IMG/VR virus record: IMGVR_UViG_3300021090_000023
Span: 1-56,902 of that record
From: a virus
Taxonomy: Duplodnaviria; Caudoviricetes
Reading direction: 5' to 3' (one strand)
Length of the DNA stretch: 56,902 nucleotides
The translations under genes and the position numbers were made by a program. The notes below the pieces were generated by a model that was not told where the DNA came from, did not search any database, and saw nothing but the letters and a program-made list of their open reading frames with translations. Shown piece by piece: positions 9,923 through 20,749 of this stretch (within the stretch, counting starts at the first letter, position 1; each line of letters starts with the position of its first letter).

Positions 9923-10153
9923 ATGAGCAGTATGGAGAATTCCAGCTGGCAAAAAAATTGGCGGGAGGAGCGAGATGCCCTGAGCGCCAAGCTCGGCTTC
10001 GACTGCAGGAACGGCGGCCGGAGGATCGGGGAGATCATCGTCGAGCCGCTCCCCGACCTCCCCGGGAAGTGCCACCTCTCCGTCGCGGGCTCGATCGTCA
10101 CGGTCGATCAGGCCATCAGGATCAGGAATATCATCTATGGAGGAGGTGAGTGA
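9923..10153 (+). CDS. hypothetical protein
   Basis: RBS; packed ORF. Confidence 0.55.
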   Translation: MSSMENSSWQKNWREERDALSAKLGFDCRNGGRRIGEIIVEPLPDLPGKCHLSVAGSIVTVDQAIRIRNIIYGGGE

Positions 10154-10389
10154 TGAAGCTCTGGATACTTAGACCAATAGAGGGCGAGGGAGACTGGAGT
10201 GACGAATACGATGTGGCGCGCAGCTTCGTCGTGAGGGCGAGGTCCGAGAAGGATGCACGGAAACTCGTGCAGCCTTTTGCCGGAGACGAAGGGAGTAGGG
10301 TATGGACCCACCCGAAGAAGAGCACGTGCACGGAGCTCAAGGTCACGGGGAAGAAGGAAGTAATTATCAGAGACTTTCACGCTGGATAA
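10150..10389 (+). CDS. hypothetical protein, tandem paralog A
   Basis: MKLWIL…YDVARSFVVRARSEKDAR…CTELK…FHAG. Confidence 0.8.
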   Translation: MMKLWILRPIEGEGDWSDEYDVARSFVVRARSEKDARKLVQPFAGDEGSRVWTHPKKSTCTELKVTGKKEVIIRDFHAG

Positions 10390-10402: not shown

Positions 10403-10651
10403 GTGATGAAGCTCTGGCTCCTCCAACCAGTTGATATGACTTCCCCGCCGTGGTACCGTAAGTACGACGTGGCGCTCGGCTTCGTCGTCAGGGCGGAGTC
10501 CGAGAGGGATGCACGGTCGCTCGTGCGGAAGCCCTTCGGCGTGGGGGACGAGGGCGACGACGTCTGGGCCTCCTCGAATATTACTACGTGCACGGAGCTA
10601 AAGGCAGAGGGACCAGCGAAAATCATAATATCAGCCTTCCACGCTGGATAG
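10403..10651 (+). CDS. hypothetical protein, tandem paralog B
   Basis: MKLWLL…YDVALGFVVRAESERDAR…CTELK…FHAG. Confidence 0.8.
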   Translation: MMKLWLLQPVDMTSPPWYRKYDVALGFVVRAESERDARSLVRKPFGVGDEGDDVWASSNITTCTELKAEGPAKIIISAFHAG

Positions 10652-12301: not shown

Positions 12302-13876
12302 ATGACGAAGTTCATCGAGAAGTTCCTAGAGCACAGGTGCGCGGGGTTCCCGATCCTCTATGTGCAGACGCACGAGGAGCAGCGCCTGATCGCCGAGTTC
12401 GCAGAGCTCTTCGGCGCGGCGGACTGGCAGGACCCGATCTACCACTGGTCGAGCGTGATAGGCATCCAGCAGATCGGGAGCGACGCGCCGCCGGAGCACG
12501 AGACGAACGCCGTCGAGGTCCTGAAGCGGGTCGTCACCCTCCCGGGAGGGAGCGTCGTCGTCTTCAAGGACGCCTCGATCCCAACCCTCGCCCGGAACCT
12601 CAGGGACATGCTCGGGCACCTCGAGGGCACCGGGAAGACGCTCGTCTTCGTGAGCCCGGCGATCTCCGTCCCCCTGGAGCTGGAGAAGGACGTCACCCTC
12701 CTCGCGTATCCGCTCCCGACGAGGGAGCAGCTCAGGGCGATCCTCGGGAAGATCGTCCTGGAGCAGGAGGGAGCGCACAGGGTCACGATAGACATTAAGG
12801 AGGGGGCGAGGGTCGCGGACGCGGCCTCGGGCCTCACGGCGAACGAGGCGAAGAACACCTTCTCGCTGGCGATCGCCCGGCACGGGAGGCTCGACGCGGC
12901 GGCGGTCAGGACGGTCCTCGCGGAGAAGGCCGGGGCGCTGAAGAAGTCGCGGCTGCTCGAGTGGATCGAGTCCGACCAGCCCCTGACGAAGCTCGGCGGG
13001 TTCGGGGCCGTCAAGGCGTACCTCGACGTCATCGCTCCGATATTCTGGAAGCCCGACGCCGCCCTGAAGTTCGGCCTCAGGCCGGAGGACTTCCCGCGGT
13101 CCATCCTCTTCACCGGACCGCCGGGGACGGGGAAGTCGATGGCGGCGCAGCTCATCGCGAACCACCTCGGCATCGGGTGCGTCAGGACCGACTTCGGGAT
13201 GATCTTCTCGGCGGGCGGCGGGCGCGTCGGCGCGGCGGAGGAGAACATCGTCCGGAGGAACGACCTGGTCGAGGCGATGGAACCCGTCGAGGACTGGTGG
13301 GATGAAGCGGAGAAGGGCCTGACCGGCGCGAGCGGGGCGAGCGTCCAGAACCCATGGGAGGCGCGGGTCGCCGGGACGCTCCTCACGTGGTTCGAGATGC
13401 ACCGGGCGCAGGTCCTCGTCGTCGCGACGGTCAACAAGCAGGAGATCCTCGCCCCGGAGATGCTCTCGAGGTTCCAGAAGGTCTACTTCGTGGACCTCCC
13501 GACGCTCACGGAGCGGGTAGAGATCTTCCGGAGTCAGATCGGCGACCGCCCGGTAGTCAAGGGCTGCCTCGGGGATGGGGAGCTGAAGCGGCTCGCCGAG
13601 CTCGCCGAGAAATTCTCGGGGCGGGAGATCAGGAACGCCGTCCAGCAGGGGTGCAGGCTCGCCTTCTCCAGGAAGGCGAAGGCCGCGGGGTACGACGACA
13701 TCTTCGATGGGATCAAGTCGATCACACCGGTGGCGAAGATCAGGAAGGGGGAGATCGAGCGGCTCCAGGACTGGGCGACGGAGAACAACATCGAGTGGGC
13801 GTCGAGCGCGCCCGACAACCCGCACGCGGTGCAGACGGCGAGGCCGCGCGCCATCAGGCTACCCAACAACAAGTAG
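12302..13876 (+). CDS. AAA+ ATPase, Ycf46-like (inactive N-terminal module plus active AAA domain)
   Basis: YVQTHEEQR N-terminus, P.ELEK, Walker A GPPGTGKS, Walker B WWDEAEK, VATVN, FFVDLP-like, FSGREI. Confidence 0.9.
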   Translation: MTKFIEKFLEHRCAGFPILYVQTHEEQRLIAEFAELFGAADWQDPIYHWSSVIGIQQIGSDAPPEHETNAVEVLKRVVTLPGGSVVVFKDASIPTLARNLRDMLGHLEGTGKTLVFVSPAISVPLELEKDVTLLAYPLPTREQLRAILGKIVLEQEGAHRVTIDIKEGARVADAASGLTANEAKNTFSLAIARHGRLDAAAVRTVLAEKAGALKKSRLLEWIESDQPLTKLGGFGAVKAYLDVIAPIFWKPDAALKFGLRPEDFPRSILFTGPPGTGKSMAAQLIANHLGIGCVRTDFGMIFSAGGGRVGAAEENIVRRNDLVEAMEPVEDWWDEAEKGLTGASGASVQNPWEARVAGTLLTWFEMHRAQVLVVATVNKQEILAPEMLSRFQKVYFVDLPTLTERVEIFRSQIGDRPVVKGCLGDGELKRLAELAEKFSGREIRNAVQQGCRLAFSRKAKAAGYDDIFDGIKSITPVAKIRKGEIERLQDWATENNIEWASSAPDNPHAVQTARPRAIRLPNNK

Positions 13877-13895
13877 GGACGGAGGACGAGAGACC

Positions 13896-14471
13896 ATGTC
13901 AGACTACTCGGTGACGCTCAAGAGGTCGGACTTCAGGAACGAGACAGCCTACCTCATCGAGGGTGGGATCTCGAACGGGAAGTGGGCGATCCGGACGGGG
14001 GCCGTGAGCAACGCGGCACTCTTCAAGACGGAAGCGCTGACGAAAGCGTTCGTAGGGGACATCGGGTCCGGGGCAATAGCGAAGACGCACGCCAGCTTCG
14101 AGTCCATCGCGCCGGGAGGCCAGCTTCACGAGTGGACGGCGACGCCCTTCCTCTTCGAGGCGGGGAGCGGGACGGCGCGGATATTCAGGAGCACCAAGAC
14201 GGGCGAGCTGACGGGGATCGACAGGCGGTTCCTCGCCCTCTTCAGGGAGGATAGGAGGTTCGCCTCGCTCTACGGTAGGGGACCCAAGTACCCGTTCCTC
14301 TTCGGGGGAAAGACGATCAAGGAGGCAGCGGCGATCTTCATGCCTATGGTACTCGACCTGCTTCCGAGGGAGCCCGCAGTAGTGGGGACGGGAGAGGAAC
14401 CGATACCGGGAAGGACAGAAGACCCGGGAGTAATCGCAGCTGCACAGAGACGGCGGTTGAAGAAGCGGTGA
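13896..14471 (+). CDS. hypothetical protein
   Basis: GGAGG RBS; 191-aa ORF. Confidence 0.7.
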   Translation: MSDYSVTLKRSDFRNETAYLIEGGISNGKWAIRTGAVSNAALFKTEALTKAFVGDIGSGAIAKTHASFESIAPGGQLHEWTATPFLFEAGSGTARIFRSTKTGELTGIDRRFLALFREDRRFASLYGRGPKYPFLFGGKTIKEAAAIFMPMVLDLLPREPAVVGTGEEPIPGRTEDPGVIAAAQRRRLKKR

Positions 14472-14502
14472 ACCATCAACCACCTCAGGGGAGGTAACAA
14501 GC

Positions 14503-15486
14503 ATGGCGAGCAAGAAGGGGCAGACGAAGGCGAGGCCCAAGTCCAAATATAAGTCCAGGGAGCAGGCGGACCCCATCCCCGTAGAGATGGCGGACGCCCT
14601 GGAGCGGGGCGTCGTCCTCTACGTCAAGATGGGGGCGCCGGGGTTCCTCAGTGGGATTGACGTCGAGAACGTCGACGCCGGAGACGTGGACCCGGAGATG
14701 CTCCGCCTCTCGAAGAAGACGCTCGACTGCACGCAGTACAAGGCCATGAAGAGCATCCACGGGCAGGTGAAGAAGTATCTCCGGGCGCGGACCCTCCCGA
14801 CGCCGAGGTGGCTGAAGAGCTCGTACTTCATCCCCGACGGGCTGGTCGCGGAGACGATGGCGGGGGTGCAGCACTTCATCGACCTCCACGACGACGAGTA
14901 CCTCCCGGCCTTCCTCAGGGTCTACAGGGAGGAGAAGGCGAGGGCGAGGGAGCGGCTCAAGAAGCTCTACGACGAGTCCGACTACCCGAGCGTCGAGAAC
15001 CTCCGGAGGTCGTGCTACATCAGGCAGGAGGTCATAGAGCAGCGGACGCCGACGAAGCTCGAGGCCATCAGCCCCTCGCTCTACAGGGAGCAGCGGGAGG
15101 CGCTCCGCCAGAAGGCGGCGGAGACGATGCAGGACGCAAAGCTCTACCTCAGGGACACGCTCTTCAAGCTCCTGACGCACCTCCACGAGAAGCTCGCCGC
15201 GAGCGACCCGGCCACGGGGAGGCCGATGGCCATCCGGAAGTCGGCGGTCGAGAACATCGAGGACTTCCTGAAGTTCTTCGAGCCGAGGGACGTAAACAAG
15301 GACGCCCCCATGCAGGCGATGATCGAGAAGCTCCGGAGGAGCATGACGGGGCTGGACCTGGAGACCGTCAAGCACGACGAGAAGTACCGGGCGTCGATGG
15401 CGGCGGCCGTCGGCGCGATCACCAAGGACCTCGGCGCGCTCGTCACGGTGGCGCCGAGGAAGATCCGCCTGCCGAAGGCGGGCTAG
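14503..15486 (+). CDS. DUF3150-like helical protein
   Basis: LSKKTLD, SYFIP, LYDESDYPS motifs; location downstream of a Ycf46-like AAA gene. Confidence 0.65.
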   Translation: MASKKGQTKARPKSKYKSREQADPIPVEMADALERGVVLYVKMGAPGFLSGIDVENVDAGDVDPEMLRLSKKTLDCTQYKAMKSIHGQVKKYLRARTLPTPRWLKSSYFIPDGLVAETMAGVQHFIDLHDDEYLPAFLRVYREEKARARERLKKLYDESDYPSVENLRRSCYIRQEVIEQRTPTKLEAISPSLYREQREALRQKAAETMQDAKLYLRDTLFKLLTHLHEKLAASDPATGRPMAIRKSAVENIEDFLKFFEPRDVNKDAPMQAMIEKLRRSMTGLDLETVKHDEKYRASMAAAVGAITKDLGALVTVAPRKIRLPKAG

Positions 15487-15492
15487 AGGGGG

Positions 15493-15675
15493 ATGAAGGA
15501 CAGGGGGAGGGAGTATCTAGTCCAGAAGATGGAGAAGTCGAGGTGCCCCGACTGCGGCACACCGGTCGACCTCCTCATTCGCCGCGACGGGGGCGGGCCG
15601 ATCTTCTACATCTGCTTCGCGGACCGCATGGTAGCCCAGGCAGGAGCCGGGAGAGTCCCGAGGGAGAAGGGGTGA
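15493..15675 (+). CDS. small zinc-finger protein
   Basis: CPDCG…FYICFAD. Confidence 0.6.
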   Translation: MKDRGREYLVQKMEKSRCPDCGTPVDLLIRRDGGGPIFYICFADRMVAQAGAGRVPREKG

Positions 15676-15676
15676 G

Positions 15677-15871
15677 ATGGAGGGAAGAGGTACCGAGGTC
15701 GTGGTCGGGAGGTGGTACTTCCGGCACCTGGCGGAGGAGCAGCGGCGGGAGTACGAGGGGCGGAACCCTAGGTGGACGGTCGAGGTCCGGGAGGTGCTCT
15801 ACCCGCAGACCCAGTCGACGCGCCCGACGTACGTCGTGATCCTCGTCGTCGAGGGGGAGGGGGGTGCGTAG
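15677..15871 (+). CDS. hypothetical protein
   Basis: Packed ORF ending 4 nt before array 1. Confidence 0.55.
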   Translation: MEGRGTEVVVGRWYFRHLAEEQRREYEGRNPRWTVEVREVLYPQTQSTRPTYVVILVVEGEGGA

Positions 15872-15875
15872 GGGG

Positions 15876-16679
15876 GGAGGAGCCAACGTCGCCGAGAGTA
15901 GCAAACCGGATGATCGAGTCAGGTGGCGAGAAGGTTCCAAGTCGAAAGAGCGAGTCAGAGTTTCAGAAGGTAGCATGTCGAGAGAGCGAGTCAGATCGCC
16001 TCCAGGGGCCAGATCCCACGAGCGAGCCGGGATCAGAGAGAGCAACAAATCCCAAGAGCGAGTCACATGAGAAGAGGGAACCAACGCAGAAGAGCGAGCC
16101 GTCGTCCGAGAGCGCGCCATACACGATCAGCGAGTCAAGTACTCCGAGGGTGCCAATGAGGCAGAGCGAGTCAGGTGCAGAGAGAGTAGCACACTACTTG
16201 AGCGAGTCAGGTCGCAAGAACGTAGCAATAGCACAGAGCGAGCCACTTGGTCATAAGGTATCAGAGTTCGAGAGCGAGTCATGCGAGGGTAATGTACCAC
16301 AATAGGAGAGCGAGTCAGCGTCCGGGAGAGTAACCAAAGAGGGGAGCGAGGCAAAGTCGAGGAGGGTACCACACCGGAGAAGAGCGAGTCAGTTCATAGG
16401 AAAGTATCAGAGTTGGGGAGCGAGTCACGTGAGGAGAGGGCATCAATCAAATGGAGCGAGTCACCGAGGCAGAGGGTTCCAAACTAGCGGAGCGAGCCAT
16501 TAGGTGTAATAGTAACAACTACCAGGAGCGAGCCACGTTAGGAGAGGGCGTCAAACCAAGTAAGCGGGCCAGTAACGGGGAGTGCACCAATCATGGAGAG
16601 CGAGCCATGGCGCGCGAGAGTACCGAGAGATGGGAGCGAGCCAGAACGACAGAGGGTAGCAATATTCGTGAGCGCGCAG
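15876..16679 (+). ncRNA. TIGR-type dual-repeat guide RNA array 1 (22 units of ~36 nt)
   Basis: GAGCGAG(T/C)CA at 15948, 15984, 16020, 16056 … 16634 with 36-nt period, alternating with GAG(A/G)GTAnCA; 8-nt variable segments between them. Confidence 0.9.
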
Positions 16680-16710
16680 TAAACCTAGAGAAGAGGAGGG
16701 TAAGGAGGCA

Positions 16711-17238
16711 GTGCCTTATGGCGTAAAGATCTTACCGAGGACAGATGATACGGCTAAGTTGAGACGTACAATTAGGAGGATAAAAGTAGTTACAGATAGA
16801 GGATGCTGGATCTTACCTCCTCGATTATCTACCCAGCAAGGCCGTCCGATGCTAACAGTAAAAGGATATAAGGTAAGACTAGCACGTGCAGTCTACGAGA
16901 TATGGTATGGTCCATTAGGGAAGAAATTTGCTCTTCACTCATGCGATAATGAGCGATGCTTTAACCCAGTCCACCTATGGAAAGGTACCCAGAAGCAAAA
17001 TATAAAGGACGCCGCTAAGAAAGGGAGGATGTATCGAGGACCTCATCCATGGGCCCCTAGAGGTAAAGATCATTTTGCATATAAAAACCCCAAGAAATGG
17101 AAAGTACACCTAAAGAAGATGATACTCGGACAAGAAGGGAGGCGACCTACTGGTAGTAATCACTGGAGTAAGCGTCATCCTATAAGATGGAAAGAGATGT
17201 TACTCGAACGAGAAAGGAAAAGAAAATCAGTCATATAG
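16711..17238 (+). CDS. stand-alone HNH endonuclease (HNH_3/homing type)
   Basis: GCWI, ARAVYE, ALHSCDNERCFNPVHLWKGTQKQN; AT-rich relative to flanks; AGGAGG RBS before GTG. Confidence 0.9.
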   Translation: MPYGVKILPRTDDTAKLRRTIRRIKVVTDRGCWILPPRLSTQQGRPMLTVKGYKVRLARAVYEIWYGPLGKKFALHSCDNERCFNPVHLWKGTQKQNIKDAAKKGRMYRGPHPWAPRGKDHFAYKNPKKWKVHLKKMILGQEGRRPTGSNHWSKRHPIRWKEMLLERERKRKSVI

Positions 17239-17669
17239 TCAGGGTGGAGTGCAAGGTCGAGGACGAGGAGCTGGTCGCCCGCGCGGCGGAGCGGCTCGGC
17301 CTCGCGGTCGAGCGGAACGCCGTCCCCCGCTACTGGGGGAGCGCCTACGGAGGCGGGGAGAGCGAGACCTGCGACCTGGTCGTGAAGCTCCCCGGGAAGT
17401 ACGACCTCGGGGTCAAGCGGGGGGAGGACGGGACGTACCGGTGGGTCTGCGACACCGAGCTGCTCGAGGGGGCCTACGGGGCGGACGACCCCGGGCGGAA
17501 GCTCCTGGGGGAGCACGCGGAGCACCTCATGACCGCCTACGGCTGCGCCGCCGTCGAGCGCGACCTCCTCCAGGGGGCGGCGTATCAGACCTCGGTAGGG
17601 GCGGACGGGACGGTGTACTACGACGTCGATGAGAGTGAGCTCAACCGGATCGGGTATCAGAGGGACTAG
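17187..17669 (+). CDS. DUF1257 (Ycf35-like) protein; true start uncertain, near 17226
   Basis: SHIVRVECKVED…AAERLGL…YDLGV…YRWVCD; AAA/DUF2997 context. Confidence 0.7.
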   Translation: MERDVTRTRKEKKISHIVRVECKVEDEELVARAAERLGLAVERNAVPRYWGSAYGGGESETCDLVVKLPGKYDLGVKRGEDGTYRWVCDTELLEGAYGADDPGRKLLGEHAEHLMTAYGCAAVERDLLQGAAYQTSVGADGTVYYDVDESELNRIGYQRD

Positions 17670-17671
17670 GC

Positions 17672-17884
17672 GTGCACTTTACGTTCGTCGTCGAGGTGGA
17701 GGTCGAGCGCGCGCACGGGAAGTTCGCGACCCGAGAGGAGATAGCGGTGCAGATTCAGGAGGCGCTCGAGGGGGCGGACCCGGGGCAGTACGACGCGGAG
17801 AACGAGGGGGAGTACGGGACCACGTCGTGGGACGTCAGAGATCACTCGGTACCCAAAACCAAACAGAGGAGGAAGAGGACATGA
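17672..17884 (+). CDS. hypothetical protein
   Basis: Packed ORF, ATGA-coupled to the Tas gene. Confidence 0.65.
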   Translation: MHFTFVVEVEVERAHGKFATREEIAVQIQEALEGADPGQYDAENEGEYGTTSWDVRDHSVPKTKQRRKRT

Positions 17885-19176
17885 GAAGGGGTGGCATCGC
17901 GAGGCAGGACGTCGAGGACCTGGAGGAGCTCTCTGGGGTGGCGTGGGCGAAGCTCTCGAAGGACCTGAAGACGGCGGCCGACACGCTCACGGTCGAGCAG
18001 GTCAGGTACCTCGTCGATACGTTCTATCAGGTGCAGCAGTTCCGGATCGAGTCGGCGGGGCAGGAGCGGGCGTCGCGGGCGGCGGGGGAGCCGACCGACT
18101 TCGTGACGTGGATCTCGCGGTCCATGAAGACCATGGAGGGCGCGATCCGGACCGCGCTCGACCGCTACACGGACACGCGGGCGGAGGGACGGTGGGCGAA
18201 GTCCATCGTCGGGATCGGGCCGGTCCTCTCGGCGGGGCTCCTGGCGCACATCGACGTCGAGCAGGCGCACACCGCGGGGGCGATCTGGCGCTTCGCCGGG
18301 ATCGACCCGACCGTGCGCTGGATCGGCAAGGAGGAGGCGAAGGCGCTCGTGAAGGCGGGCTGGGAGAAGTCCAAGTCGGCGGAGGAGAACGCCCGGGCGC
18401 TGGCGCTCCGGCTCGGGCGGAGGCCGGAGTACCTCATCCGGGACGCCACGCCGAGGCCGACGGTGCCGGTGGATAGGTCGGCGGACATCGTCTGGATCGT
18501 CCAGAATCAGTGGATTTCAGGTCAGACGTTCGAGCAGAACGTCGGGACGCTCCTCGGGCGCTTCGTGGGCGAGGAGGAGAAGCTCGCCGCCGCAGCGAAG
18601 CTGATCATGGAGCACGCGTCCGACTGGACGTGGGACCCGAACCTCGACCCGGAGGGGAACGGGCGGTCGATGGCGAACCTCGTCACGCTCAGGGACCTCC
18701 CGGTCCAGAAGCCGATGACGGCGGCGACGGTGGAGAAGGCGCTCTCGAAGCGGCCGTGGAACGCGCGGCTGAAGGTGCTCTGCTACAAGATCGGGGAGTC
18801 GTTCGTCAAGCAGCAGAACCACGCGGACGACGTCTACGGCAAGGTCTTCGTCGCCCGGAGGGCGCTGGAGGTCGAGCGGAACCGGGGCGGGCTCTTCGCG
18901 GATCAGGCGGCGGCGGCGCTCGCGGCGAAGAACTACAGCCGGGAGACCAGGGCCAAGGCGGCGTACGAGAGCGGGAGGCTGCCGGACGCCCACATCCACG
19001 CGCGGGCGCGGCGCTACGCCGTCAAGATCTTCCTCTCGCACTTTCAGCACGTCGCCTACGAGGTCCGCTACGGCGCGCCCCCGCCGCGGCCGTTCGTCAT
19101 CGAGCACCTCGGGCACACGGAGTACGTCAGGCCGCCGAACTGGCCGATGCCCTCGGCGGAGGGGAGGGTCGCGTAG
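17881..19176 (+). CDS. TIGR-associated Nop-domain protein (TasA-like, no nuclease domain), 431 aa
   Basis: Coiled coil RYLVDTFYQVQQFRI; WAKSIVGIGPVLSAGLLAHID…AGAIWRFAG; KRPWNARLKVLCYKIGESFVK; HIHARARRYAVKIFLSH; no N-terminal DEDD RuvC; flanked by dual-repeat arrays. Confidence 0.88.
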   Translation: MRRGGIARQDVEDLEELSGVAWAKLSKDLKTAADTLTVEQVRYLVDTFYQVQQFRIESAGQERASRAAGEPTDFVTWISRSMKTMEGAIRTALDRYTDTRAEGRWAKSIVGIGPVLSAGLLAHIDVEQAHTAGAIWRFAGIDPTVRWIGKEEAKALVKAGWEKSKSAEENARALALRLGRRPEYLIRDATPRPTVPVDRSADIVWIVQNQWISGQTFEQNVGTLLGRFVGEEEKLAAAAKLIMEHASDWTWDPNLDPEGNGRSMANLVTLRDLPVQKPMTAATVEKALSKRPWNARLKVLCYKIGESFVKQQNHADDVYGKVFVARRALEVERNRGGLFADQAAAALAAKNYSRETRAKAAYESGRLPDAHIHARARRYAVKIFLSHFQHVAYEVRYGAPPPRPFVIEHLGHTEYVRPPNWPMPSAEGRVA

Positions 19177-19955
19177 TCAGGTTTTAGGAGCGTATCAAGT
19201 ACAGCGAGCGAGTCAAAGTACGAGAAGGTAACAGCGAAACTGATCGAGACAAAAGCAGAGAGGGCATCAATACGCGAGAGCGAGTCATTCATGAGGAGAG
19301 TATCAAACTCTATGAGCGAGTCGAGCGTCCAAAGAGTACCAAGGCTGCTGAGCGAGTCATTGTTGAAGAAAGTAGCAACGTAGATGAGCGAGTCATCTTT
19401 GTTGAGAGTACCATAGGGAGAGAGCGAGTCACAGATCCGGAAAGTATAATAGAGGGCGAGCGAGTCATACCCCAAGAGCGAGTCACAGCACACGAGGGCA
19501 TCATCGAGAGGGGAGCGAGTCAGACAAAAAGCAGGTATCATTGTCCGTGAGCGAGTCAGACGAAGGAAGGGTGCCATGTACCAGGAGCGAGTCAGAATCC
19601 GAGAGAGTACCAATAAAGTAGAGCGAGTCAGATCACGTGATAGTACCAAAGAGATCGAGCGAGCCACTTCGGGAGATAATAACATAAACGCGGAGCGAGT
19701 CAGAACACCAGACAGTTACATGAACAGCGAGCGAGTCAGAACATGAGAGGGTAGCAATACTGACGAGCGAGTCACACGTCCGAGAGCGTAACAGAATACG
19801 TGAGCGAGTCATAGTGAGCGAGAGTAGCATAGATATAGAGCGAGTCAAGCAATGCAAGAGTTTCATGGCCGTGGAGCGAGCCGTATCCAATGAGAGCACC
19901 AAGAAGATCGAGCGAGCCATATCACGTAAGAGTACCAACTCGACGGAGCGGCCCC
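19170..19955 (+). ncRNA. TIGR-type dual-repeat guide RNA array 2 (21 full units plus one 18-nt half unit)
   Basis: GAGCGAGTCA at 19206, 19278, 19350, 19386, 19422, 19458, 19476, 19513 … and variant at 19910; second repeat GAGAGTACCA-like 18 nt later. Confidence 0.92.
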
Positions 19956-19966
19956 CGAAGGGGCGC
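19948..19966 (+). other. GC hairpin closing array 2 (processing or termination element?)
   Basis: GCCCC-CGAA-GGGGC right after the terminal half repeat; no U tract. Confidence 0.4.
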
Positions 19967-19974
19967 GACACGCG

Positions 19975-20065
19975 GTAGGGCGGCGGCCGGATTAGGCCCT
20001 AGGGGTAGGGGTAGGACCCCGCCCTAGCGGGCCGCGCCGGGCCCTAGACGAGACTTCTAGCCGGG
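19975..20065. repeat. CCTAG/TAGG-rich intergenic element, copy 2
   Basis: GGCCCTAGGGGTAGGGGTAGG, GCCCTAG twice more, CTAG. Confidence 0.5.
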
Positions 20066-20157
20066 AGAGGGCCCGGAAAGAGGGGAGAGGGAGCGAAGTC
20101 GATGGCAGCAGCGAACCCGAGAGCCCCAGAGGAGCGGGGAAGAGAGCGAGGCGAGAG

Positions 20158-20346
20158 ATGAGCCGGACGGTGCGGATAGCAGTGGCGAGGGGCGGGGCGG
20201 TGACGGTGAAGGCGGAGGGCTTCAGGGGCGAGGGCTGTCAGCCCCTCGTCGAGGAGCTCTCGGCGCGGCTGAAGGGGACGGCGAAGAGCACGGAGCACAC
20301 GGCGGAGTTCTACGAGCAGGCAGACGTACAGGAGCAGAGGCAGTGA
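20158..20346 (+). CDS. DUF2997-like small protein
   Basis: GAVTVKAEGFRGEGC…TAEFYEQ; context with DUF1257 and AAA. Confidence 0.8.
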   Translation: MSRTVRIAVARGGAVTVKAEGFRGEGCQPLVEELSARLKGTAKSTEHTAEFYEQADVQEQRQ

Positions 20347-20513
20347 AGCTGAAGGTCTTCCTCTACCTCCTCATGCTCGACACGACGGTACCCGGTGAGG
20401 TCGAGAGGATCGTAGCGATGGCAGAGAAGAACGCGGACCCGAAGTTCCTCAACGCACACCTGGCGGCATACGCGGAGGAGCTGTCGAAGAGGCTCCTCGG
20501 ACAGGAGGGCTAA
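20343..20513 (+). CDS. hypothetical protein
   Basis: GTGA overlap; FLYLLMLD…GEVERIV. Confidence 0.55.
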   Translation: MKLKVFLYLLMLDTTVPGEVERIVAMAEKNADPKFLNAHLAAYAEELSKRLLGQEG

Positions 20514-20515
20514 GA

Positions 20516-20749
20516 ATGTACCGCATAGCAGTGAAGCCGGGTGGGCTGATCGTAGGCGTCTACACGGACAAGATCCAGTGGAGGCGACTCGGTGAGATCA
20601 GCGTCGAGCGGGCGGCGCACGTCGAGTACGACAACAAGCAGGAGGGGTGGACCGTCGAAATGGCAGACGGGGCGGTGCTCCCCGGAACCTGGACGCGCCG
20701 CGAGGACGCGCTCGCGGCGGAGCGGGAGGCCGTAAGTGCCTCGCTCTAG
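20516..20749 (+). CDS. small protein of the type found with DUF1257/DUF2997 clusters
   Basis: GVYTD…LGEISVERAAHVEY…GWTV…RREDALAAE. Confidence 0.7.
   Translation: MYRIAVKPGGLIVGVYTDKIQWRRLGEISVERAAHVEYDNKQEGWTVEMADGAVLPGTWTRREDALAAEREAVSASL

Follow-up and report, generated by a model that had tools for sequence, protein, structure and literature searches.

TIGR-TasA systems were described in 2025 (Faure et al., Science 2025, PMC12045711), and dual-repeat examples include FpTasA of Flavonifractor plautii (PMC12045711) and MbTasA (Xu et al. 2026, preprint 10.64898/2026.09.09.750476). According to the main texts of these reports, TasA alone represses transcription in an RNA-guided manner, a Tyr/His pair in a C-terminal loop processes the array transcript (both Xu et al. 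2026, 10.64898/2026.09.09.750476), and TasA is without clear protein associations, an occasional ParB-like partner excepted (PMC12045711). Neither main text mentions a link between Tas and ATPase, AAA, or DUF families; such a link may appear among the supplementary neighborhood data (fig. S14 and tables) that accompany Faure et al. 2025. Among cyanobacterial genes, a DUF2997-ycf35-fed7 cluster has been reported, in which ycf35 is the DUF1257 gene (PMC4284462), and a search for DUF1257/DUF2997 or Ycf46 in phages, by title for Ycf46, found no relevant publication among those listed. Here, we analyzed IMG/VR record IMGVR_UViG_3300021090_000023, a 56.9-kb stretch of phage DNA (39% complete by CheckV; hereafter, the window), in which a TIGR-Tas locus is interleaved with genes for a Ycf46-like AAA+ ATPase, a DUF3150-like protein, DUF1257, and DUF2997.

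The window contains a genuine dual-repeat TIGR-TasA system of a known kind. An original prediction, made from the sequence alone, had reasoned that a Tas protein without a nuclease might recruit the neighboring ATPase module as its effector, which would define a new TIGR-Tas subtype, and had offered an insertion hotspot as the alternative. We consider it likely that the TIGR-TasA system is an autonomous cassette lodged in a permissive ATPase module, and that the two became neighbors by insertion and do not form one machine.

Identification of a dual-repeat TIGR-TasA system

The tas gene (17881-19176, + strand) encodes a protein of 431 aa that passes the curated NCBIfam model NF052498 (TIGR_Tas_endo) at 155.9 bits against a cut-off of 100 (E = 1.5e-45). 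An AlphaFold2 model of this protein consists of helices only (mean predicted local distance difference test [pLDDT] score of 82), and the top 10 Foldseek hits of the model in the Protein Data Bank (PDB) are all TasH or TasR structures (probability 1.00; template modeling [TM] score, by target, of 0.30 to 0.65). Sequence matches to PDB chains 9mty_A and 21kl_A were found with phmmer. No nuclease family, HNH and RuvC included, was detected in the protein with Pfam at E <= 0.1, and the lack of a nuclease domain identifies it as TasA, a predicted Nop-domain, RNA-guided DNA binder without nuclease. Tas proteins form a large family (4,504 at E <= 0.001 among 8,000 scored candidates), and a tblastn search with TasA gave no match at 1e-5 in 50,697 deposited phage genomes. 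Viral-contig relatives of both the Tas and the AAA proteins were recovered with alignment queries, single-protein scans having found none; a Tas relative (P0006) and an AAA relative (P0126), each 76% identical to its window counterpart, are only inferred to lie on one contig.

TasA of the window exceeds the ~270 to 290 aa of most relatives because of a helical insertion of ~140 aa at approximately residues 148 to 290, which is absent in most relatives of ~275 aa. AlphaFold2 confidence falls to 52 to 69 in part of this insertion. In the alignment, other relatives carry shorter or different insertions at the same point. His412 is invariant within a conserved C-terminal stretch (29/29 aligned relatives).

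Two arrays lie on either side of tasA, both with a 36-nt period according to Tandem Repeats Finder and a repeat finder (15.9 to 16.7 kb and 19.2 to 19.95 kb). Anchoring on the edge repeat yields 19 and 21 units with a spacing that is nearly always 36 nt; when units with degenerate anchors are included, array 1 (~15880-16679, + strand) and array 2 (~19188-19951, + strand) comprise ~22 and ~21 units, respectively. Across the 40 anchored units, positions 1 to 10 (GAGCGAGYCA) and 19 to 28 (GArrGTAnCA) are conserved, and positions 11 to 18 and 29 to 36 vary without constraint. Array 1 ends 1.2 kb upstream of tasA, with three foreign genes in the interval (HNH, DUF1257, and g08), and array 2 starts 12 nt downstream of tasA. 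Two elements of the original prediction are thus borne out: TIGR arrays, as a 36-nt edge/spacer/loop/spacer unit beside tas on the same strand, and the absence of a nuclease, in that the Tas protein itself is negative in Pfam and modeled as all helical. The locus is a clean phage example of TIGR-TasA, with ~43 guides in two arrays.

The stretch 3' of array 2 (19946-20157) begins with an edge repeat in truncated form, and next comes a G+C hairpin, GGCCCCCGAAGGGGCG, without a T run. Approximately 200 nt of G+C-rich noncoding DNA with TAGGGG repeats lie between array 2 and the DUF2997 gene. This stretch may function as an unfamiliar kind of terminator or promoter region.

The ATPase module and its distribution without Tas

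All elements from the AAA gene to the last small open reading frame (ORF) of the region (12302-20749), the two arrays included, run in one direction on the + strand, and every element named in the original prediction was found in the predicted order. Five of the genes form a module. The first encodes the AAA+ ATPase (12302-13876, + strand; 524 aa), which matches PF00004 (2.3e-14) and phrog_8638 (5e-67); several of its homologues are named SpoVK/Ycf46/Vps4 family by the Joint Genome Institute (JGI), and the label Ycf46-like goes by these names and not by orthology. The second, g03 (14503-15486, + strand; 327 aa), is among the 27 members of an iterated family. The predicted label DUF3150-like holds for g03 through this family, of which one protein (L126) passes PF11348 (7.3e-15, 55.4 bits, cut-off 24.9), and does not hold for g03 directly, which has no Pfam match of its own. 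The L126 protein is the sole pass of seven family members scanned; two others fall below the PF11348 cut-off (L217, 5.1e-5; L048, 1.4e-3) and four have no match, and a PDB sequence search with g03 returned coiled-coil noise only. The DUF1257 (Ycf35-like) protein (17187-17669, + strand; 160 aa) scores 20.8 bits against PF06868 (4.7e-4; cut-off 22.2), falls in a 57-member iterated family, and is 43% identical to its counterpart in a Tas-less relative (L085). DUF2997 (20158-20346, + strand; 62 aa) passes PF11211 (1e-9, 38.5 bits, cut-off 24.1), and the fifth module protein, g12 (20516-20749, + strand; 77 aa), is part of a 12-member iterated family and is 47% identical to its L085 counterpart. In the window, the module is broken three times: by array 1 with the HNH gene; by g08, tasA, and array 2; and by a 56-aa ORF.

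This five-gene module stands on its own. A tblastn search with the AAA protein hit 37 of the 50,697 deposited phage genomes. In Pseudomonas phage SM1 (KU245542, SM1_026-031), the AAA gene, a 201-aa ORF, a 319-aa ORF, DUF1257, DUF2997, and a 116-aa g12-like ORF follow directly on one another upstream of dnaB and a polymerase gene, with neither Tas nor array. The SM1 DUF1257 protein, a member of the same iterated family as that of the window, scores above the Pfam cut-off (3.1e-5, 24.6 bits), its DUF2997 matches at 4.7e-8, and its 116-aa ORF is matched by g12 in tblastn at 1.9e-4. Rhodobacter phage RcTiptonus and Agrobacterium phage JP1 have a similar arrangement, again of the module alone.

The same picture emerges from uncultivated viruses. 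Alignment of AAA relatives provided 80 viral loci from 79 IMG/VR records, and these records were searched whole for Tas. A strong Tas match is present in two (G088 and G091) and a weak one (33 to 36 bits) in two more, so that 77 of the 79 AAA-bearing records are without a strong Tas match, the three closest relatives among them; an array with the edge motif occurs in none of the 80 loci. These closest relatives (L085, L086, and L087; AAA identity of 45 to 49%) are collinear for AAA, g03, DUF1257, DUF2997, and g12 and have no arrays, Tas, or HNH gene, and L086 has a copy of g08, 50% identical, after its AAA gene. The module is therefore found intact without Tas or arrays in SM1, RcTiptonus, JP1, and all three close relatives. 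Iterated profiles run over 79 AAA loci recovered DUF1257 in 47, DUF2997 in 49, g03 in 19, and g12 in 7, and both DUF genes in 44.

The junction between DUF1257 and DUF2997 appears permissive in these relatives. Both genes are present in 44 Tas-less loci; 22 of these have a gap of no more than 100 nt and 17 a gap of over 300 nt. Ten ORFs from these gaps were scanned, and six belong to unrelated families (four radical-SAM/Fer4_12, one DUF2204 nucleotidyltransferase, and one STIV B116-like); the other four have no family. The orphan AAA+/DUF1257/DUF2997 module is thus autonomous and widespread and accepts cargo at its internal junctions.

The radical-SAM/4Fe-4S (Fer4_12) gene lies between DUF2997 and DUF1257 in four Tas-less phages (L111, 12885-13460; L127, 12869-13552; L136, 12577-13161; L160, 7586-8110), where it may be either cargo or a lineage-specific module member.

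Viewed from the side of Tas, the module is similarly rare. DUF2997 occurs in 3 of the 47 Tas-bearing viral records searched whole; of 57 viral Tas loci flanked on each side by 3 kb or more, 2 contain core module genes and 55 do not; and any module family at all occurs in 10 of 160 Tas loci. Sister Tas lineages are without the module, and where module families do occur, their order and strand differ by lineage, which argues against a partnership at the level of an operon. An accessory module would recur beside tas in a conserved operon and would be rare without tas, and the module does neither. With the module alone in isolated phages, few Tas loci containing its core, and an order that differs in every lineage, the proposal of a guide-recruited ATPase effector, and hence of a new TIGR-Tas subtype, is not supported, and the insertion hotspot that had been offered as its alternative is favored.

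Proposed organization and function of the region

The window genes are nearly all on the + strand, and names assigned from PHROGs include a helicase, RadC-like protein, DNA methyltransferase, DnaB, primase, family-A polymerase, SSB, UvsX-like recombinase, SbcCD, and thymidylate synthase, which identify the window as the replication arm of a tailed phage. Across 92 dereplicated Tas clusters, the real neighbors seen most often are a DnaB helicase and a C5 methylase (7 each), so that Tas, too, has a tendency to reside in this arm. The region would be a composite of three independent elements, namely, the five-gene module with small lineage-specific ORFs, the TIGR-TasA system, and an HNH homing endonuclease, and TasA and the module would be neighbors because insertions of cargo are tolerated in this part of the replication arm. 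In this one phage lineage, the TIGR-TasA system would occupy two gaps of the module, with array 1 between g05 (a 64-aa ORF) and DUF1257 and with tasA and array 2 between g08 (a 70-aa ORF) and DUF2997.

By analogy with the published relatives, the arrays would be transcribed with the co-directional operon, and TasA would cut the precursor into 36-nt tigRNAs. A TasA dimer would then pair two 8- to 9-nt spacers with opposite strands of a target of ~18 bp. Staying bound without cutting, it may prevent a host gene or a competing mobile element from being transcribed or replicated. TasA would require no module protein for this, and the module would require neither TasA nor guides.

The module itself is most likely a protein-remodeling ATPase with its own adaptors. 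The AAA protein and g03 end in similar C-terminal tails (PRAIRLPNNK, 13840-13873, and PRKIRLPKAG, 15450-15483) and are the only two window ORFs with such a tail. In relatives (L085, L099, L126, L138, L139, L143, L149, and L158 were compared), a change in one tail is matched in the other, as in the pairs SRAATLDL/SRASMLEL and GRKIRV/KRMIRLE, which suggests a docking peptide common to the module. We did not file the module as a defense system: PADLOC returned only generic AAA-domain matches (IetA and TRIP13) and none for the other proteins of the region.

Recurrent proximity of Tas and the module

Functional coupling, as raised in the original prediction, is a rival explanation that we regard as unlikely. 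In this lineage, guide-loaded TasA would mark a DNA site to which the AAA+ module would be recruited, either by TasA itself or via DUF1257 or g08, and the module might, for example, remove or unfold a DNA-bound protein there. This would make the locus a new subtype with an ATPase effector. Several observations weigh against simple insertion and toward such a link. The nearest Tas relatives compared (L165 and L166; Tas 73 to 74% identical), whose identical spacers show them to be a single phage sampled twice, keep the order array 1, DUF1257, g08, Tas, array 2, DUF2997, g12, without the HNH gene and the 56-aa ORF. The arrays of L166 (1099-1423 and 3462-3967) occupy the same sites and have the same edge and loop repeats as those of the window, and spacer turnover is complete: over the 16 variable positions, every one of the 19 L166 guides differs from each of 42 window guides at more than 3. 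An interleaved order that is kept when all spacers differ is not a fresh accident. DUF1257, g08, and tasA are also tightly packed between the two arrays, with 2 nt between DUF1257 and g08 and a 4-nt overlap of the g08 stop with the tasA start.

Proximity also recurs beyond this lineage. Tas directly follows g03 in L048 and lies ~500 nt after DUF2997 in L171 and L216. In L126 (7449-8675, - strand) and L129 (1-846, - strand), Tas lies 1.3 to 2.2 kb upstream of the AAA gene and is divergent from it; the distance to the module is 7.5 kb in L058 and ~22 kb in L036. Module-adjacent Tas proteins fall in at least five separate places of the Tas tree, each with module-less sisters, and the AAA proteins near Tas come from three AAA-tree branches that are far apart. 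Of the refuting observations named in the original prediction, a lack of enrichment of these neighbors around close Tas homologs is not cleanly borne out, since L165 and L166 share the interleaved order and several further lineages have Tas beside module genes. A hand estimate of placement over the five whole records with both elements gave p ~ 0.04 under uniform placement. The guides are a further point against our interpretation: with 42 guides, no target was found in the window at up to one mismatch (gaps of 0 to 4 nt), and no exact match was found in 3.3 Mb of loci (gaps of 0 to 2 nt). The target scan used two opposite-strand and two same-strand control geometries, the true target geometry not being fixed by the published text, and the counts of one-mismatch targets in the loci (9 to 10) lie inside the range of five shuffled spacer pairings (5 to 17).

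These points have to be set against several others. The same hand estimate rises to p ~ 0.3 when the two elements are restricted to one half of the genome. Beyond the rarity of co-occurrence from either side (44 of 47 Tas records are without DUF2997), no module gene is consistently beside Tas. Apart from tasA, the genes between the arrays all have a homologue in Tas-less phages, unrelated cargo occupies the same DUF1257-DUF2997 junction elsewhere, the tail common to AAA and g03 is missing from Tas, and TasA is reported to repress alone in the main text of the Xu et al. 2026 preprint. A predicted complex of TasA and DUF1257, each given as an alignment, scored 0.18 against a mark of 0.32, which counts neither for nor against binding. 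Chance co-location of Tas and the module is likely, and their recurrence, which is real, is probably accounted for in large part by a shared replication-arm address.

Proteins like g03 roughly match the top neighbors of Tas in frequency (9/160 loci and ~7/92 clusters, by hidden Markov model), which favors coupling. Such proteins occur 2 to 4 kb upstream of tasA in L062 (5330-6238), L217 (1941-2864), L236 (4733-5686), and L237 (2221-3174), and these loci, from three lineages, have no AAA, DUF1257, or DUF2997 gene within them. As g03-like genes thus occur near tasA without AAA, the DUF3150-like protein is not tied to the AAA module either. No array was found near the L126 and L129 Tas genes with Tandem Repeats Finder (L126, 4 to 14 kb) or by an edge-motif scan of both loci; their arrays may be of another kind or elsewhere.

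In its boldest form, coupling would make the TasA-guide complex the targeting arm of a Ycf46-like AAA+ machine in this lineage, and perhaps in others where tasA abuts DUF2997, g03, or AAA, delivering a remodeling ATPase to a chosen DNA site. We hold this to be quite improbable, but if true, it would provide a new TIGR-Tas subtype and a first functional handle on the orphan Ycf46/Ycf35/DUF2997 set. More generally, closeness of tasA and the module above the expectation from a shared address would give both systems a testable partner.

Coupling in cis only, without protein contact, is likewise rather improbable. In processing the arrays, TasA would sever the operon mRNA before DUF1257 and again before DUF2997, altering the dosage or timing of module proteins. 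Dual-repeat Tas proteins are described in the main texts of Faure et al. 2025 (PMC12045711) and Xu et al. 2026 as cutting array transcripts into 36-nt units, the genes and arrays of the window are co-directional with very short gaps, and a consensus scan found promoter-like sites at approximately the shuffled level and fewer terminator-like sites. However, the promoter consensus is of the E. coli type, and the phage has 63% G+C, so the lack of matches says little; moreover, the 200-nt G+C-rich spacer with its hairpin after array 2 could end or restart transcription. Insertion of an autonomous TIGR-TasA cassette remains our preferred explanation for the interleaved order.

The HNH gene and other open reading frames

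The third element of the proposed composite, a free-standing HNH endonuclease of 175 aa (16711-17238, + strand), is encoded between array 1 and DUF1257; it is probably of the homing type, with its insertion limited to this phage. The protein matches seven PHROGs endonuclease families, six of which are named HNH endonuclease (best match phrog_1872, 2.3e-19); the Pfam families HNH_3 and zf-His_Me_endon were hit below cut-offs only. The last 52 nt of the gene overlap the start of DUF1257. Its arrival looks recent, the gene being absent from the otherwise collinear L165 and L166. A split TasH, in which this protein would supply the nuclease in trans and turn the system into a DNA cutter, can be set aside as very improbable: TasH proteins are natural HNH-Tas fusions according to the main text of Faure et al. 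2025 (PMC12045711), and the HNH gene does share the strand of tasA, 640 nt upstream, but it is a separate gene not fused to the N terminus of the Nop domain, L165 and L166 keep arrays and tasA without it, its product matches the PHROGs endonuclease families and no PDB chain at E <= 1, solved TasH included, and no HNH relative was found in the Tas loci compared except for one 54-residue tblastn match in L039.

The remaining ORFs of the region are small and, for the most part, without an assigned family. An ORF of 191 aa (13896-14471, + strand) follows the AAA gene; it has no match in Pfam, PHROGs, PADLOC, or NCBIfam and no relative in the loci compared, and it occupies the same slot as ORFs of 201 to 230 aa after the AAA gene in phages SM1, RcTiptonus, and JP1. 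Two small ORFs separate g03 from array 1. The first (15493-15675, + strand; 60 aa) contains a CxxC motif, has zinc-finger hints in Pfam that are all below cut-off, and is conserved in L166 alone, at 58% identity; its sequence points to a possible zinc ribbon. The second, g05 (15677-15871, + strand), is conserved only in L165 and L166. The acidic g08 protein (17672-17884, + strand) has its homologue in Tas-less L086, and the 56-aa ORF between DUF2997 and g12 (20343-20513, + strand) is found in this phage only, with no relative in the loci compared.

Upstream of the region, two neighboring ORFs (10150-10389, 79 aa, and 10403-10651, 82 aa) are clear paralogues that start with MMKLW and end in ...FHAG. 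Judged from these two sequences, the pair is a tandem duplication of a phage protein without an assigned function.

Comparison with known systems

The closest described systems are the dual-repeat TIGR-TasA systems. As in these, the window encodes a phage-borne Nop-domain Tas without a nuclease, with arrays on both sides of tas on the same strand that start and finish with truncated edge repeats. The window differs in the size of its TasA (431 aa), in the separation of array 1 from tasA by three foreign genes, and in variable segments that appear to be 8 nt and not 9 nt. The peculiarities of the locus are thus modest: a large insertion in a dual-repeat TasA, and arrays parted from tasA by foreign genes.

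TasA-TasParB operons, the sole accessory association of Tas found in the main texts of the two TIGR reports, also combine a nuclease-free TasA with other genes between or beside the arrays. In the main text of Faure et al. (PMC12045711), however, TasParB is reported to be consistently operonic with tasA in a conserved structure, whereas the neighbors found in the window accompany a small minority of Tas loci, change order, and occur mostly without Tas. No ParB-like gene was seen in 12302-20749 with Pfam or PHROGs.

The module of phage SM1 is the closest counterpart of the other half of the region. It has the same five families in the same order and, as in the window, lies upstream of dnaB and a polymerase gene in the replication arm, and it differs in being continuous where the module of the window is interrupted three times.

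Nuclease-free guide complexes that recruit an ATPase do exist, as in CRISPR-associated transposons, where Cas12k or Cascade works with the AAA+ protein TnsC, and in type IV CRISPR with DinG, and the ATPase effector of the original prediction would resemble them. In those systems, the ATPase gene is constant and defining, whereas the ATPase module of the window is absent from nearly all Tas loci and autonomous elsewhere. The locus shows that unrelated genes can separate TIGR arrays and tasA from one another and that genes between the arrays are not automatically Tas associated.

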